Below are positions 4,998 to 45,654 of a DNA stretch of 45,654 nt, piece by piece. The position numbers and the translations under genes were made by a program. This DNA is from an uncultured Bauldia sp. GTDB taxonomy: Bacteria > Pseudomonadota > Alphaproteobacteria > Rhizobiales > Kaistiaceae. Below the pieces are notes generated by a model. The model saw only the letters and a list, made by a program, of their open reading frames with translations. It made no database searches and was not told where the DNA came from. The DNA lies in the NCBI GenBank assembly GCA_964641825.1, contig CAZXKZ010000001.1:1-45654 (forward strand), written 5' to 3'. The first letter of the stretch is position 1; the number at the start of each line of letters is the position of its first letter.

Positions 4998-5733
4998 TGA
5001 TCGGATGATGGACGATTTTGAGCGGCAGGTGCAGGGGGAGCTCGACCGGCTGGAAGGGCCTGATTTCCCGGCGACGCGGCGGGCGCGCCAACAGCGAGCG
5101 GAGACGATCCGGGCGCTGGCCGCGGCGACGATTGCCGGCGAGCCGTGGACGGGAGAGAACGGCGTGCTGGGGCCGAAGCGCCGGACGATCATCGTCGGTG
5201 AGAAGAACTTCTACGAGAAGCGACACTGGTACGCGCACCCGTTGACACGGGAGGTCATCGAGAACGTTACGGCTCTCTATCTGGAGCGCGACGCGGCCGA
5301 GCGAGAGCGGGCGCGGCAGGAAAAGAAAGCGTGGCTGGAGAACAAGGAGATGGAAGCGGCCGAAACGCAGTTCGCCAAGGCGGGCGATCTTCTGGCCCTA
5401 CCCCACATCACCAAGAAGACGGTGTCGGCCGGCGGCGAGACGACGATCATCCTCGACCCGGCGAACGCGGCCGTGTTCAACGCGGCAGTGAACCTGAACA
5501 AGTCGGCGAGCGAGCTGGCGCGTCGGGCCCTGGGGCTCCCGACTGATACGACCCGGAATGAGCTGACCGGGGCTGCCGGCGGCCCCGTCCGGACACAGGA
5601 GATAGGACGCCTTCATGACGGTGCAGAGCACCTCGCGGCAGTCACCCGAATTCTGGTTGAATCTGGCGCAGTCGAACTACGACCAGTTGGCCAGGGCCGT
5701 GACGCCGCGGATGACGAAGTACATCCCGCATAA
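4990..5733 (+). CDS. putative terminase small subunit (position only)
   Basis: 247-aa ORF immediately upstream of and overlapping the large terminase gene. No diagnostic motif. Confidence 0.35.
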   Translation: MSFDRMMDDFERQVQGELDRLEGPDFPATRRARQQRAETIRALAAATIAGEPWTGENGVLGPKRRTIIVGEKNFYEKRHWYAHPLTREVIENVTALYLERDAAERERARQEKKAWLENKEMEAAETQFAKAGDLLALPHITKKTVSAGGETTIILDPANAAVFNAAVNLNKSASELARRALGLPTDTTRNELTGAAGGPVRTQEIGRLHDGAEHLAAVTRILVESGAVELRPVGQGRDAADDEVHPA

Positions 5734-30098: not shown

Positions 30099-30425
30099 TC
30101 ATGGCGTGGCCTCATTTTGTTGGGTGTACCATTCATCAGCAATGCGGATGATCATGGCAATCGTTCCTACAATCTCGATACGCACATCCTCATCCACGTT
30201 CTCGAATCCACGCTTGATAGCGCGTCGATCTAGCAAGTTGTGAATAATGCCCCGCGCCGCTGCTACTGCCCAATCGTCGGCTTTTGGTGGTGGGGGTGAC
30301 GGCCAAGACTCTCGCCACTCATCACTGGCATCATATGGATACCATGATGCGCTTAGGAGATCGTGCTTCGCCCCTTCAGAACTCGGAGGCGTTGGACTGT
30401 CTATAAAACCTGTCATTGATGTCAA
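30099..30425 (-). CDS. hypothetical protein
   Basis: 108-aa ORF in the island. Confidence 0.45.
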   Translation of the reverse strand: MTSMTGFIDSPTPPSSEGAKHDLLSASWYPYDASDEWRESWPSPPPPKADDWAVAAARGIIHNLLDRRAIKRGFENVDEDVRIEIVGTIAMIIRIADEWYTQQNEATP

Positions 30426-30433
30426 TCCTCCTT

Positions 30434-30664
30434 TTACCGTTTAGGCGTCAAGTCGAGCCGCTTGACAAAACCAAGTTCTTCGGCCTTGCGCGAACAATCG
30501 TTTTCTTCCTCAAATAGCAAATCTGTTTTGCCATTGGGGAGCGTGATAACCCGAACGTAATGGATGAAAATCATCTCGCCGGATACGGGATGTACCCATC
30601 GCGTCATGGGGTGATGCACAACATCGCAGTATTCACATTGTTCGATATGTCTGTCGTATCTCAT
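30434..30664 (-). CDS. hypothetical protein (Cys/His-containing)
   Basis: 76-aa ORF, 8 nt upstream of the next gene. Confidence 0.45.
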   Translation of the reverse strand: MRYDRHIEQCEYCDVVHHPMTRWVHPVSGEMIFIHYVRVITLPNGKTDLLFEEENDCSRKAEELGFVKRLDLTPKR

Positions 30665-30688
30665 GGCGTGGCCTCGGTGTGGGCGGGG

Positions 30689-31558
30689 CTACGATTCCAA
30701 AATGACGCCTTGCGATAAGGCTCTTTTAGATTTGTAGCTACGCCAATATTCAATAACTTCTTCTGGCACGTCCAAATTAACATATTCTCCTTCGCGAATT
30801 TTCCTGATGGCTATTGTTATGCCCATCCTCTCGTCATTGTAGATACCAAGCCAACTACCACAATTCTTGCGGTTGTAAACAGCATTTCTAAGTGAAGTAT
30901 TCAATCCCATCTCTAGCGCAGTTCGGGGGCTTATCCCATATTGAGATGGGGTTATTTCTAATACGTCCCCAATACGTGACACTTGCACGTGCTGCATATC
31001 AATGAAATCAAAGCGTAATCCTGGAGCGCACATTACATACCATTCCTCATTCACCCACCGCCGCCAATACCCACTCCCATCTAGTGATAGTGAATCCCAA
31101 AGTTGGAATGGATCATAGCTTGGGCTTTGGAAGTGACCTTTATGTGTCATCCGAAATGTAAATGAATCGCCCGGATTCATCGGCTCTTTGCTCTGGACGT
31201 TTCTGTATACACCTTGCTGGTTTGTGTCAGTACTTTCTATTGCTATGGGCAATTGGAATTTCCCTCTCGGCTCGCATACCGTTTCTTGTTCAGGCCGCCG
31301 CTGGTCGTTGGGGAAAGTTGCCTTAATCGTTTCGATAAAGGTTAGTAGTGCGGGGCTTTCCTCGAACCACTCCCCCCGCTTGGCGTACTGAGCAAACGCC
31401 CTATGTAACCCGGCCTCTAAGTCAGCACCACCGGGCATGACCGCCAATAGTTCTAGCTCGTTATGGTGGGATGTCTGAAAACTGGCAAGGCGACGCCACG
31501 GGTCAGCAGATAAACCGATCTTGATATATCCATCGTCACGAATGAAATAAATCGACAT
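30689..31558 (-). CDS. T5orf172/MUG113 (GIY-YIG superfamily) domain protein with an unknown C-terminal domain of about 200 aa
   Basis: N-terminus IYFIRDDGYIKIGLSADPWRRLASFQTSHH...LHRAFAQYAKRGEWFE. GGAG lies 7 nt before the ATG. Confidence 0.7.
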   Translation of the reverse strand: MSIYFIRDDGYIKIGLSADPWRRLASFQTSHHNELELLAVMPGGADLEAGLHRAFAQYAKRGEWFEESPALLTFIETIKATFPNDQRRPEQETVCEPRGKFQLPIAIESTDTNQQGVYRNVQSKEPMNPGDSFTFRMTHKGHFQSPSYDPFQLWDSLSLDGSGYWRRWVNEEWYVMCAPGLRFDFIDMQHVQVSRIGDVLEITPSQYGISPRTALEMGLNTSLRNAVYNRKNCGSWLGIYNDERMGITIAIRKIREGEYVNLDVPEEVIEYWRSYKSKRALSQGVILES

Positions 31559-31569
31559 GATTCACTCCG

Positions 31570-31662
31570 AAAACGCAAAACTGCCACCTTTACTCTGTGA
31601 AGTGTCTAGGTTCACAGCCGGGGCGTGCCCGTGAGTAAAGGTGGCAGGTTTGCCACAGAGTA
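31570..31662 (-). promoter_or_regulatory. structured 5-prime leader: terminator (15-bp stem enclosing two hairpins, then UUUUGCGUUUU) with a competing 9-bp antiterminator pairing
   Basis: 31581-31595 pairs perfectly with 31633-31647. 31591-31599 pairs perfectly with 31654-31662. The U-tract is the reverse complement of 31570-31580. Confidence 0.5.
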
Positions 31663-31715
31663 TGCAATTGTCGGGCAACAAAAACGCCCCGAAACCATGA
31701 ACCTAGACAATAGAA

Positions 31716-31744
31716 AGTATATCATGGCTGGGTCCCGACCGCAA
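31716..31744 (-). promoter_or_regulatory. candidate promoter TTGCGG-N17-TATACT feeding the structured leader
   Basis: Reverse complement read directly. The -10 box is identical to those at 38256, 42217 and 42285. Confidence 0.3.
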
Positions 31745-31928
31745 GCGGTTCGACCGCTTCACTTGCCACTAATCGCAGATTTCCGTCAATCAGTTCAAAG
31801 CCGGGCATAAAGACGAGGATGCCCCGATTGCCACTAATCAGTGCATGGCGTACGATTACATCATGCCCCGCGTCCCTGACTTCCAACGCCATATTTGCCA
31901 CTAGTGCCACGGCGTCAAATCTACTCAT
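31722..31928 (-). CDS. hypothetical protein (start uncertain, ORF extends to 31985)
   Basis: The ATG at 31928 gives an 8-nt overlap with the upstream gene stop. Confidence 0.4.
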   Translation of the reverse strand: MSRFDAVALVANMALEVRDAGHDVIVRHALISGNRGILVFMPGFELIDGNLRLVASEAVEPLAVGTQP

Positions 31929-32277
31929 GCGATCTAAGCCGGGCTTCTTCTTCTCTTGCATCATCGAGTTCTCCGAGCTTGACATATTGAGACCCCTTTT
32001 TGTAAGCTACCTTACCGGACTTGTTATAATAAGTAACGGCGCGGCCCGCGTCGTCTTTTGCCTGATAGCGCCAGCGCCAATAGCCGTTTGAGTTTTGCTC
32101 CAATCGCCAGCCTTTCACCGGGCGCTTGACTTCTTCCTGTAAGACTATATCGGCGTCAGTCTCTTGATAAGGTGGCAAATCGCGCTCTATGGCGTGTTTT
32201 ACTCTGTTGACACTAGTGGCAACTGACCGGCCACTAGTGTCAACTCTCTCCATTCCCCCCGGCGCGTCCATTCCCAT
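31921..32277 (-). CDS. hypothetical protein
   Basis: 118-aa ORF, K/E/R-rich. Confidence 0.45.
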   Translation of the reverse strand: MGMDAPGGMERVDTSGRSVATSVNRVKHAIERDLPPYQETDADIVLQEEVKRPVKGWRLEQNSNGYWRWRYQAKDDAGRAVTYYNKSGKVAYKKGSQYVKLGELDDAREEEARLRSHE

Positions 32278-32327
32278 CCGCGCCGGGGCCGTCTCTCGCC
32301 GTCGCTTCGCTTCATCAGCGGCGACGG

Positions 32328-36754: not shown

Positions 36755-37672
36755 ATGAACCTGACTGAAGCCGTGGAGGCGTTTCTGGCGGCGCAGGCGG
36801 GAGAGGTCGCTGTGTCTACGCGGCGGTGGTATGGCCGCCGTCTGTCGGCATTCTGCGAGTTCGTCGGACCGATAGCGCTCGATGACGTGGCCGTGGGGTC
36901 GATCCGCGCGTTTCGCGCCCACCTGGTGGAGCGCGAGTTGAGCGGGCACTACATTCACGGCTGCCAGCGGGCGTTGCGCCGGCTGTTCGCGTGGCTGGTC
37001 GACGAAGGGCTGGCGACTCGCAACGTGGCCAAGGACGTGCCGCTGGTGCGACTTCCCCCGCAAGCCCCAAAGGCCCTGAGTGATGACGATTTGGGACGCC
37101 TGTTGGCGCGCCTGCCGTATGAGGACGTGAGGGACCGGGCGATTATCCTGCTGCTGGCCGACACGGGTTGCCGGGTCGGCGGGCTGTGCAGCCTGACGCT
37201 GGAGTCATTGGACCTGCCGAACCGGTGTGCCGTGGTCATCGAGAAGGGCCGGCGCGGCCGTCGGGTCTACTTCAACGATCTCACGGCCGAGACGATCGCG
37301 CTGTATCTGGCGGTCCGGCCGGAGAGCGAGGCCCCTGCCCTGTTCCTGTCGCGCTCGGGGTCGCCGCTGACGACCAACGGGGTGCGGCTGATGCTGGAGC
37401 GGGTGGGCAAGCGGGCGGGGGTGAAGGGGCGGTGTAACGCGCACTCTTTCCGACACGCCTTTGCCCGGTCGTTCCTGCGCAACGGCGGCAACCTGGCGGC
37501 TCTGGGCCGGCTGCTGGGCCACGCGCCGGGGTCGGCCGTGACGGCTCGCTATTATGCGGTGTGGGATGACCGGGAGCTGCAGGAGTACCACCAACGGTTC
37601 AGCCCGCTGGCGAATGTGAACGGCCGAGCGGGGGACAACCAGTCCCCGGCTCATGAGAGCAAGGGGCTATAG
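36755..37672 (+). CDS. int: tyrosine recombinase / phage integrase (XerC/D-like)
   Basis: ADTGCRVGG (Arg), HSFRHAFAR (H-x-x-R) and LLGH...TARYY (His, Tyr nucleophile). Confidence 0.9.
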   Translation: MNLTEAVEAFLAAQAGEVAVSTRRWYGRRLSAFCEFVGPIALDDVAVGSIRAFRAHLVERELSGHYIHGCQRALRRLFAWLVDEGLATRNVAKDVPLVRLPPQAPKALSDDDLGRLLARLPYEDVRDRAIILLLADTGCRVGGLCSLTLESLDLPNRCAVVIEKGRRGRRVYFNDLTAETIALYLAVRPESEAPALFLSRSGSPLTTNGVRLMLERVGKRAGVKGRCNAHSFRHAFARSFLRNGGNLAALGRLLGHAPGSAVTARYYAVWDDRELQEYHQRFSPLANVNGRAGDNQSPAHESKGL

Positions 37673-37685
37673 AACAGTCGTTCTA

Positions 37686-37741
37686 GTGGCGATGGGACTC
37701 ATAAGCCCTAGGTCGATGGTTCAAATCCATCTGGCGCCACA
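37686..37741 (+). other. tRNA-Met-like 3-prime fragment (anticodon-loop CTCATAA, T-arm gatggttcaaatccatc, acceptor tggcgcca); attP core candidate
   Basis: Read directly. The 5-prime half needed for a cloverleaf is absent. Confidence 0.5.
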
Positions 37742-38232: not shown

Positions 38233-38261
38233 TTACCGGATTGGAACGGGTGTGCTATACT
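38233..38261 (+). promoter_or_regulatory. candidate promoter TTACCG-N17-TATACT
   Basis: Direct reading, about 135 nt upstream of the LTD gene. Confidence 0.35.
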
Positions 38262-38296
38262 GAGAGCGGTTCTTCGGTTTTCTATCTGCGGAAGTG

Positions 38297-38336
38297 AACG
38301 GCCGAGCGGCGCAAGCTGCCCGGCCGTTTGCGTTTG
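38297..38336 (+). terminator. leader hairpin (GCAA-tetraloop extended stem) followed by tttgcgttt
   Basis: aacggccg...cggccgtt forms the outer stem. The same TTTGCGTTT tract follows the hairpin at 31570-31580 (minus strand). Confidence 0.4.
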
Positions 38337-38398
38337 GTAGGGAGGTTGTGGGTCCGTCATTTCGATCGGCTTGTCGGTTTTGATTTATGGAGGTCGAG

Positions 38399-42198: not shown

Positions 42199-42216
42199 AG
42201 CGCCCTCTTGCCAAAG

Positions 42217-42246
42217 AGTATACATGATGCGTCGTTCGTATGTCAA
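42217..42246 (-). promoter_or_regulatory. leftward promoter TTGACA-N18-TATACT
   Basis: Reverse complement of 42241-42246 is TTGACA and of 42217-42222 is TATACT. Confidence 0.55.
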
Positions 42247-45225: not shown

Positions 45226-45654
45226 ATGGACATCGAGAAGAAGCTGAACGAGTATGCGGCGGTGGTGGGGTTTGTGTGCCCGGCGGAGTTCTGGCCGGCG
45301 CTGGGATATGAGGGGGAGGCGCGATATGTGGCGATCTGGTGGGAGCAGTGCGGCGACGAGGCGTCGTGGAGCGACGGCCGGACGTCGGTGGTGGGGGCGA
45401 GTTGGCCGGCGTATCAGAAGCTGATCGAGGCGAACTTCGCGCTCGGCCACCCGGCGCGGTGGCTGCTGGGCAGCAGCGAGACGGCGGCGACGATGTGGTT
45501 GATCATCGACCGGATGACGGAGTGGGCGTGGCTGACGCCGGTGGAGGAGGCGGCGGTCGTGTTGCGGCGGCAGTGGAAAGAGCCGGAGCGGCCGGCGGCG
45601 AGCGTGGAGGAGTGGATGTCGGCGATTGACGAGGCGATGGCAGCGGGGGTGGCC
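45226..45654 (+). CDS. hypothetical protein, 5-prime part (continues at nt 49 after removing the 48-nt overlap; about 185 aa in total)
   Basis: AAGGAGA lies 5 nt before the ATG. 143 codons with no stop to the window end. Missing from the ORF track because it has no stop. Confidence 0.6.
   Translation, partial: MDIEKKLNEYAAVVGFVCPAEFWPALGYEGEARYVAIWWEQCGDEASWSDGRTSVVGASWPAYQKLIEANFALGHPARWLLGSSETAATMWLIIDRMTEWAWLTPVEEAAVVLRRQWKEPERPAASVEEWMSAIDEAMAAGVA
45607..45654. repeat. 48-nt terminal direct repeat, identical to 1..48
   Basis: Exact identity by direct comparison. Confidence 0.95.

Follow-up and report, generated by a model that had tools for sequence, protein, structure and literature searches.

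A conserved leader with two alternative predicted RNA folds in front of phage nuclease genes

The subject of this work is the leader of a T5orf172 nuclease gene on the minus strand of a 45,654-nucleotide stretch of DNA, hereafter the window, which is contig CAZXKZ010000001.1 of the uncultured Bauldia sp. assembly GCA_964641825.1. From its first base at 31709 to the ATG of the gene (31558-31556) the leader measures about 150 nt, and it can fold in two extensive ways, which are nearly equal in stability and are both maintained in homologous leaders, and one of which is predicted to hide the ribosome-binding site (RBS) of the nuclease gene. With moderate confidence, we interpret the leader and its sigma-70-type promoter as a portable module, in which a bistable RNA acting in cis would gate a mobile and probably toxic phage nuclease gene. 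This place had been pointed out by an earlier reading of the window (the sequence-only reading), which took it for a terminator facing an antiterminator.

Two folds and their conservation

The minimum-free-energy fold of the leader RNA is a long hairpin of 107 nt (LH, 31709-31603 on the minus strand, like all leader features below), which we propose as the ON state. It consists of a basal helix P1 of 16 bp (31709-31694 with 31618-31603), followed by P2 of 7 bp (31691-31685 with 31625-31619), P3 of 6 bp (31677-31672 with 31631-31626) and an apical hairpin P4 (31656-31651 with 31646-31641). The second fold, proposed as the OFF state, is built on helix T, of 21 bp with one C-U mismatch (31653-31633 with 31595-31575), which closes a three-way junction domain (31653-31575) enclosing the hairpins H2 (31631-31628 with 31622-31619) and H3 (31616-31611 with 31601-31596); another hairpin, H1 (31689-31685 with 31677-31673), forms upstream in this state. 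The core of T is the perfect 15-bp pairing of CUGCCACCUUUACUC (31647-31633) with GAGUAAAGGUGGCAG (31595-31581), next to which stands UUUUGCGUUUU (31580-31570), and in this the sequence-only reading, which had described such a pairing around two small hairpins, was right.

Both folds are far more stable than expected by chance. By itself, LH reaches -54.7 kcal/mol (z-score -7.1) and the T domain -42.6 kcal/mol (z-score -7.0), neither of them being equalled by any of 200 dinucleotide shuffles, and the z-score of the entire leader is -4.4. The two overlap by 52 nt, and their arms follow each other in the interleaved order P1-5′, T-5′, P1-3′, T-3′. By a geometric estimate, in which a linker of only 7 nt between P1 and the 3′ arm of T is set against a stack of about 29 bp, they should be mutually exclusive as full folds.

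Seven further distinct leaders, on six metagenome contigs and in one prophage of a Thauera sp. metagenome-assembled genome (MAG), bring the number of distinct sequences to eight, and it is on the MAFFT alignment of these (A4) that the counts of this work were made. When transcripts starting at the leader's own promoter are folded, with total energies of -60 to -70 kcal/mol, the ensemble free energy of T minus that of LH amounts to +1.0, -0.1, -2.7, +2.4, +0.1, -0.5, -0.6 and +4.8 kcal/mol in the eight sequences, that is, LH and T are nearly isoenergetic in seven of them. In every sequence, moreover, the two states together hold essentially all the probability of the unconstrained ensemble, split between them as 0.87/0.13 in the window, 0.61/0.39 in contig L017, 0.58/0.42 in L010 and 0.31/0.69 in L011.

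It is in the identity of the competing fold that our results depart from the sequence-only reading, which had opposed to T a 9-bp pairing of UACUCUGUG (31662-31654) with CACAGAGUA (31599-31591). This complementarity does exist, but as an antiterminator it is negligible: in each of the eight sequences an RNA forced into it loses 20-25 kcal/mol relative to either main state, and its probability in the ensemble is about zero. The true competitor of T is LH, of which two further complementarities listed by the same reading (31619-31626 with 31683-31690, and 31605-31610 with 31702-31707) prove to be pieces. The idea of two exclusive folds thus stands, for LH and T, with the 107-nt hairpin replacing the 9-bp partner.

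If both folds matter to the carrier, mutation should have left its footprint on both. Folding and covariation across homologous leaders, the check that had been suggested for this locus, show that both are kept by compensatory changes. In the T state (T, H1, H2 and H3), 100% of the 280 alignment cells are paired, with five double-sided changes, three of them in T and two in H3; only 4 of 500 shuffled controls match its pair count and none its covariation score. For LH, 98.6% of cells are paired, with two double-sided pairs, both in P1, and many G-U-compatible changes, and 22 of 500 shuffled controls match the covariation score. Shifting the partners by one to three columns brings pairing down to 33-54% in both folds. 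Most telling are the nucleotides that take part in both: the change of column 123 from A to G gives C-G in P1 and G-U or G-C in H3; that of column 89, also from A to G, gives U-G in P4 and G-C in T; and where column 121 went from G to A (in L058) both of its partners compensate, giving U-A in P1 and A-U in H3. Since shared nucleotides change only in such a way that both pairings survive, both folds seem to be under selection. On the complementary strand the many G-U pairs would turn into A-C mismatches, and the functional RNA is therefore the one in the sense of the nuclease gene. These data support the view of the leader as a real, selected and structured RNA on the T5orf172 strand.

These eight leaders do not stand in front of one and the same gene. 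Two of them (L017 and L016) precede full-length homologues of the window's 289-amino-acid nuclease, with 76% and 61% amino acid identity; four (L010, L011, L056 and L058) precede T5orf172 proteins of about 220 amino acids with a different C-terminal part; and the Thauera copy (NZ_DAOMPS010000073.1) is followed by an unrelated HNH endonuclease gene, and further downstream by five small open reading frames (ORFs), a large terminase and a portal gene. The homology between window and Thauera, at 93%, is limited to the stretch from the -10 box through the Shine-Dalgarno sequence (SD). Leader identity remains at 87-96% across loci with such different downstream genes (two T5orf172 types and HNH), and is 95.6% and 88.4% where the adjoining coding sequence is only 73.4% and 63.2% identical. 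By this distribution, the leader is a module common to at least three kinds of nuclease cargo.

The homologous leaders came from protein homologues and from one exact-pattern scan, the latter being how the Thauera MAG was found in the genome collection. Searched at the DNA level, the leader has one copy in its own MAG and no match in further genomes from the same family (86), from the order (400) or from the family of the Thauera MAG (400), nor in 50,697 phage records. Three exact leader patterns had no match in the viral-contig collection; a fourth gave 20, none of which fits the covariance model of the leader (R1), and in the genome collection a pattern match in an Acidoferrales MAG was dismissed as chance, there being no leader around it. 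Single-protein locus searches and an alignment-based genome search found nothing, and at the more distant T5orf172 loci L026 and L028-L030 there was no comparable leader. In the place of the leader, the loci of T5orf172 homologues of about 50% identity (L004-L008, L018-L021 and L054/L055), full-length ones among them, carry a perfect inverted repeat of about 20-24 bp, which contains two divergent promoters of the TTGCAC-N17-TAGAAT type, both divergent genes being predicted to be leaderless, from their ATG. The arms of this palindrome contain TCTAGA and CTAGCA motifs and may represent a shared operator. As a separate observation, the whole MAG holds a sole near-copy, with one mismatch, of the leader's invariant ATACTCTGTGGCA, namely ATACTCTTTGGCA (42209-42221, minus strand), which supplies an operon with RHH and a second T5orf172 gene with the -10 box and start region of its promoter; chance would produce about 0.05 near-copies in the phage and about 3 in the whole MAG.

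Ribosome-binding site, U run and promoter

What T would do to the downstream gene is suggested by what it brings together. The SD of the T5orf172 gene, GGAG (31568-31565), is part of a CGGAGU (31569-31564) which in the T state pairs with an invariant ACUCUG (31661-31656), a predicted anti-SD within the invariant AUACUCUGUGGCA. In all eight homologues the invariant linker AUACUCUGUG is predicted to pair with the SD through CUCU in this state, and this anti-SD role would explain why AUACUCUGUG does not vary. The SD of the next gene always lies 3-7 nt past T. Its predicted probability of being unpaired is 0.00-0.21 in the T state, as opposed to 0.10-0.77 in LH, and in all eight the SD lies within a stable leader helix in the predicted T state, which is what characterises RBS-sequestering hairpins.

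The other candidate output is transcription termination, and here the T helix itself gets in the way. The first six nucleotides of the U run UUUUGCGUUUU, at 31580-31575, belong to the helix, and only a tail of GUUUU (31574-31570) is left past its 21 bp in the window, with UUUA in L010 and GUUA in L011 and L056; the versions of the run in homologues are UUCUGCUUUA or UUCUGCGUUA. Columns 81 and 156, inside the U tract, pair as A-U, G-C or G-U, including a compensatory change from A-U to G-C, and the T state places the tract in an internal loop between the T and anti-SD:SD helices. Nor was T flagged by the terminator scanner, its loop of 37 nt exceeding the scanner's limit of 8. Of the intrinsic terminator of the sequence-only reading, the stem is there, with a U run just before the SD, but it is not a simple hairpin with a short loop, as the loop is branched and T extends into the U tract. 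Judging from sequence, T would be at best a weak terminator, in some members, and masking of the RBS is, as modelled, the feature common to all eight. The pairing of the SD with the invariant ACUCU in the T state would make translational gating at least as likely as termination.

The promoter had been noticed by the sequence-only reading, and it is where and what that reading said. A -35-like hexamer TTGCGG (31744-31739, minus strand), in the 3′ end of the upstream 87-amino-acid ORF, is separated by 17 nt from TATACT (31721-31716), which together with a TG at 31724-31723 makes up the extended -10 element TGaTATACT (31724-31716), overlapping the stop codon TGA (31724-31722) of the same ORF. Transcription is predicted to start at about 31709 ± 2, at UGUCUAGG, in agreement with the leader length of about 150 nt that had been proposed. 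The consensus scanner did not flag the window's promoter, the -35 of which matches the consensus at three of six positions. Its position is, even so, strictly kept: in all eight homologues a TATAAT, TAAAAT or TATACT box lies exactly 6 nt 5′ of UGUCUAGG, with -35 boxes (TTGACG, TTGACT, TTGCGG, TTGTGG or TTGCCG) 16-17 nt from the -10 box. By these motifs it appears to be a positionally conserved promoter of the sigma-70 type.

A second type of leader, different in sequence, occurs in L012 (700-816) and L063 (about 5260-5385), where it precedes short T5orf172 genes and follows homologues of the same 87-amino-acid gene, and has an extended -10 box TGcTATAAT. Here too a hairpin at the 5′ end, of about 16 bp, and a helix of 16 bp are interleaved, and a U run is absent. 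The pairing partners in L063 are ACUC for the SD (GAGU) and GCAU for the start codon, the counterpart in L012 being weak. The covariance model R1 misses this type, so that the two are at most putative homologues; its arrangement agrees with RBS masking as the common output. The 10-nt string AGUCUCGCCA is found in its 5′ arm and again at the RBS.

Mechanism and rival explanations

Under the gating interpretation, transcription would start at the first base of the leader, and LH would pair the extreme 5′ end with 31618-31603, locking the 5′ arm of T and the anti-SD ACUCU in its apical loop and leaving the RNA from 31602 to the start codon mostly single-stranded, which we read as ON. In the T state, the 21-bp helix closing the three-way junction would be followed by the ACUCU:GGAG helix, with a short U run between them, and the RBS would be hidden (OFF); in leaders with a good U run, such as the window's, T would probably also end part of the transcripts at about 31575-31570. 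Our preferred guess as to the trigger is kinetic: LH would form first, during transcription, giving a translatable mRNA, and a later conversion to T, either spontaneous, aided by a chaperone or following RNase III cleavage of LH, would shut expression off. Alternatively, binding of a factor to the 5′ arm could steer the nascent RNA towards T. The order of folding predicted from growing prefixes is H1 by nt 38, P4 by nt 70, a shift to P2 and P3 by nt 92 and full LH at nt 107, so that by thermodynamics the nascent RNA should be in LH.

Metastable sequential folding is known from the hok mRNA of plasmid R1, and attenuation by antisense RNA from the rep leaders of pT181 and pIP501. In common with these, our leader precedes a probably toxic or dose-sensitive gene, a long-range pairing of its 5′ end would decide on the formation of the inhibitory helix, and the order of folding would matter. 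Unlike them, it has no antisense promoter on the plus strand, either called by the scan or seen by eye, and no known 3′ processing signal. Attenuation of the pT181 type was rejected in particular, no plus-strand promoter being called within 31560-31720; read by eye, the plus strand showed neither a -35/-10 pair nor a terminator for a countertranscript. If the leader is nothing but a kinetic timer, it would be the phage counterpart of hok-type sequential folding in plasmids.

The closest parallels in function are found in T4-like phages. Their free-standing homing-endonuclease genes (I-TevI, segB and mobE) have RBS-hiding hairpins, weak terminators and dedicated promoters, and in T4 they are released by a late promoter, which lies within the hairpin sequence and thus yields late transcripts unable to fold it (Edgell, Gibb and Belfort 2010, PMC2988022). 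The resemblance to our case extends to the cargo, a phage nuclease of a homing-endonuclease family (GIY-YIG or HNH) with its own promoter, to the very stable RNA at the RBS and the putative weak terminator, and to the presumed rationale, a low dose of an enzyme that cuts DNA. The differences are that here the promoter lies outside the structure, that release would come from a second fold, a long hairpin as stable as the first, and that the leader is conserved in sequence as a module common to unrelated nuclease genes. Such a design is unusual in its conformers of equal energy, its topological exclusion and the compensatory upkeep of shared nucleotides. Phage genomes carry free-standing nuclease genes as one of their most frequent kinds of cargo, and how phages other than T4 tolerate them is largely unknown. 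As a compact and seemingly tractable module, the leader may show how toxic cargo is kept silent and how it is released.

Several observations weigh against this interpretation. As the 3′ arm of T emerges (nt 128-140), prefix folding has LH ahead by 6-10 kcal/mol; LH being already formed and favoured at that moment, T would have to arise on an LH-folded RNA. Extra upstream RNA, as in read-through transcripts, moves the balance towards T in five of the eight homologues and does so inconsistently, and we rejected, on this account, the idea that read-through transcripts favour T by upstream capture of its 5′ arm. Accessibility of the SD in LH is not uniformly high, being 0.10-0.24 in three homologues, and the folding program does not consider pseudoknots, so that one between the loop of LH and the SD could form. 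The branched 37-nt loop of T is unusual for an intrinsic terminator, and the U run is degenerate in L010, L011 and L056 and missing from the second leader type. Finally, there are only eight related sequences, and the covariation, resting on about seven pairs, is good rather than overwhelming.

A more ambitious version, which we regard as rather speculative, would have the leader as a self-contained class of bistable, signal-sensing switch that licenses a burst of nuclease, the promoter and switch travelling among phages as a portable 165-bp module, and the leader of L012 and L063 being a version of this design that arose separately or diverged very long ago. The signal sensed might be chemical (a small molecule or magnesium), a protein of the phage or the host, temperature or the rate of transcription. 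If the leader does respond to a defined signal, it would be a new class of regulatory RNA and a portable expression gate. With regard to temperature, no effect on the balance of LH and T is predicted between 15 and 50 °C. With regard to ligands, Rfam 15 gives no match to a known aptamer, and the invariant unpaired nucleotides are largely accounted for by the anti-SD; a novel aptamer may nonetheless be present. At the gathering threshold the only Rfam 15 match in the whole window is tRNA-like (37663-37739), and at E<=10 the region 31500-31800 returns just miRNA and snoRNA noise of 10-17 bits; the leader is, as the sequence-only reading had put it, of no recognised class.

That reading had also seen in it the logic of a riboswitch or attenuator, which is justified as to the two-state structured leader, but not as to a leader peptide, a known aptamer, a simple terminator hairpin or a countertranscript. 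Attenuators and riboswitch platforms likewise have two exclusive folds, with one GC-rich helix and U residues before the SD. They differ from our leader, which has no conserved leader peptide, no Rfam aptamer and no T-box features, and in which T closes a branched loop; moreover, LH shares only 6 nt (in P4) with the stem of T and encloses its 5′ arm in a loop, so that exclusion would be topological, by interleaving. A leader-peptide attenuator was rejected on the fate of its start codon: the window has an AUG at 31698 (28 codons), and of the seven homologues only Thauera keeps it, in a shifted frame.

It is unlikely, in our view, that the leader is a stand-alone small RNA of about 135 nt that ends at T and has its targets, in the phage or the host, or a protein partner in trans, with the nuclease expressed by occasional read-through. 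Many features would fit such an RNA: a promoter belongs to it, a helix covers its 5′ end, a hairpin and U run close its 3′ end, its sequence is conserved far above the neighbouring genes, and it is found before unrelated genes; a layout of promoter, non-coding RNA, terminator and gene occurs in type III toxin-antitoxin loci. It lacks, however, the tandem repeats of the antitoxins of that kind, and has no complementary target elsewhere in the phage or in the host MAG. In addition, the U run is poor in several homologues, and the placing of the SD, always 3-7 nt after T, together with its pairing to the invariant ACUCU, points to action in cis.

Similarly low is the likelihood of a constitutive element with no switch at all, that is, an RNase III site, an mRNA stabiliser or an insulator, for which both duplexes would be substrates, and which would release the cassette mRNA from phage read-through transcripts or shield its ends. 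RNase III cuts double-stranded RNA of about two helical turns, as in the N-leader of phage lambda and the early processing sites of T7, and LH (16+7+6 bp) and T (21 bp) are each of this size. A very stable hairpin that lies close 5′ of the RBS, not over it, is described for a seg-like gene of Aeromonas phage 25 (PMC2988022). Neither function, though, would explain the compensatory upkeep of two exclusive folds at shared nucleotides or the equality of their energies across homologues.

We give very little credit to a processive antitermination leader of a late operon, like lambda PR′-6S RNA-tR′ with a Q-like protein or the put RNA of HK022, in which a short terminated transcript would be produced constitutively and extended only once a phage factor, or the RNA itself, had modified RNA polymerase. 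The leader is promoter-proximal and can be read as carrying a -10-like TANNNT element (TAGGTT or TAGGCT) at +5 to +10, and the Thauera copy lies upstream of HNH, five small ORFs, large terminase and portal. The window's leader, on the other hand, belongs to an accessory island and lies on the other strand from the structural genes, one related phage shares its neighbour genes and does without it, the Thauera leader is a low-GC insert together with its HNH gene, and Pfam and PHROGs detect no antiterminator family in the upstream ORFs; on these grounds a late leader of the lambda Q / PR′-tR′ kind was rejected. Just as improbable is a function of the DNA itself, whether as a site of homing, cleavage or recombination or as a cruciform, by which the cassette would move and in which the inverted repeats would bind proteins: the conserved block is sharply bounded, from -10 box to SD, with unrelated DNA around it, like a recombination module, and inverted repeats with CTAG are likewise part of the palindromic promoters at other T5orf172 loci, but the helices allow G-U and not A-C, which makes the constraint strand-specific, the compensatory changes link positions about 100 nt apart, and a DNA-binding site has no need for two conserved pairing schemes.

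The cassette and its phage

Bases 1-48 of the window are identical to 45607-45654, and it is therefore the circularly closed genome of a temperate phage, of 45,606 bp, binned into the MAG, and not a chromosomal island. Its GC content is 64%; the plus strand carries the large terminase, portal and tail genes and a minus-strand block the replication initiator with its iterons, and there is an integrase as well. The T5orf172/MUG113 gene occupies 31558-30689 on the minus strand and encodes 289 amino acids, with an N-terminal domain recognised by Pfam (PF13455, 1.1e-08; PF10544, 1.3e-05). T5orf172 is a nuclease domain of the GIY-YIG superfamily, present in putative phage homing endonucleases (PMC8263062). 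About 30 full-length homologues of the protein were found, metagenomic throughout, and in a tblastn search of isolated phages its N-terminal domain alone gave matches. Near the extreme 3′ end of its coding region there is a bidirectional terminator-like hairpin, GCCTTATCGCAAGGC (30697-30721), which may be the downstream boundary of the cassette transcript.

On the other side, the cassette is limited by the upstream ORF (31985-31722, minus strand; 87 amino acids, 80 as called), which marks the insertion boundary, as it is kept in related phages with and without the cassette. One phage contig of 59 kb (L064) has homologues of this and of a 118-amino-acid protein, followed by other small genes, with no leader and no nuclease, and its homology to the window stops at 31760. 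From this cassette-free relative it follows that promoter, leader and nuclease are an accessory cassette. In our reading its nuclease gene is mobile and probably toxic. Leader and nuclease gene lie in a low-GC stretch (42-53%, 30100-32300, i.e. about 30.1-32.3 kb), which is wider than the cassette, as it also holds the conserved 87- and 118-amino-acid ORFs; the Thauera leader and HNH gene form a low-GC insert likewise, of about 47-49% against about 63% in the flanks. The genes behind the leader, with T5orf172/MUG113 and HNH domains and in a low-GC cassette that is polymorphic in presence and absence, are candidate homing endonucleases.

In L064 (5200-6011), successive small genes share a ...PQE(P/T)TP* tail, and their junctions repeat CAGGAGCCGACGCCATGA, consisting of an SD and overlapping stop and start codons; such a repeat at gene boundaries may favour the exchange of cargo genes. 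The 118-amino-acid protein is encoded two genes 5′ of the leader (window 31921-32277, minus strand; L012 92-499; L064 4661-5071) and has the motif GW..E.NSNGYWRWRY...GK.AYK.GSQYVKLGELD, which we take to resemble the Arm-type or AP2-like DNA-binding domains of integrases; it could be a regulator.

Elsewhere in the phage, the sequence-only reading had compared to the leader a hairpin at 38297-38336 followed by TTTGCGTTTGG. The hairpin is real (z-score -4.0), but simple in build and unrelated in sequence to the leader. It is part of an arrangement on the plus strand (38256-38345) in which a long hairpin stands about 35 nt downstream of TATACT (38256-38261) and runs 3′ into UUUGCGUUUGG, before a lamin-tail-domain gene, and may be a promoter-proximal terminator. 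The tRNA-like Rfam match (37663-37739, plus strand), at 32.5 bits just over the threshold and without a tRNA call by ARAGORN, overlaps the 3′ end of the integrase gene (36755-37672), and is more suggestive of an attP core derived from a tRNA than of a functional tRNA.

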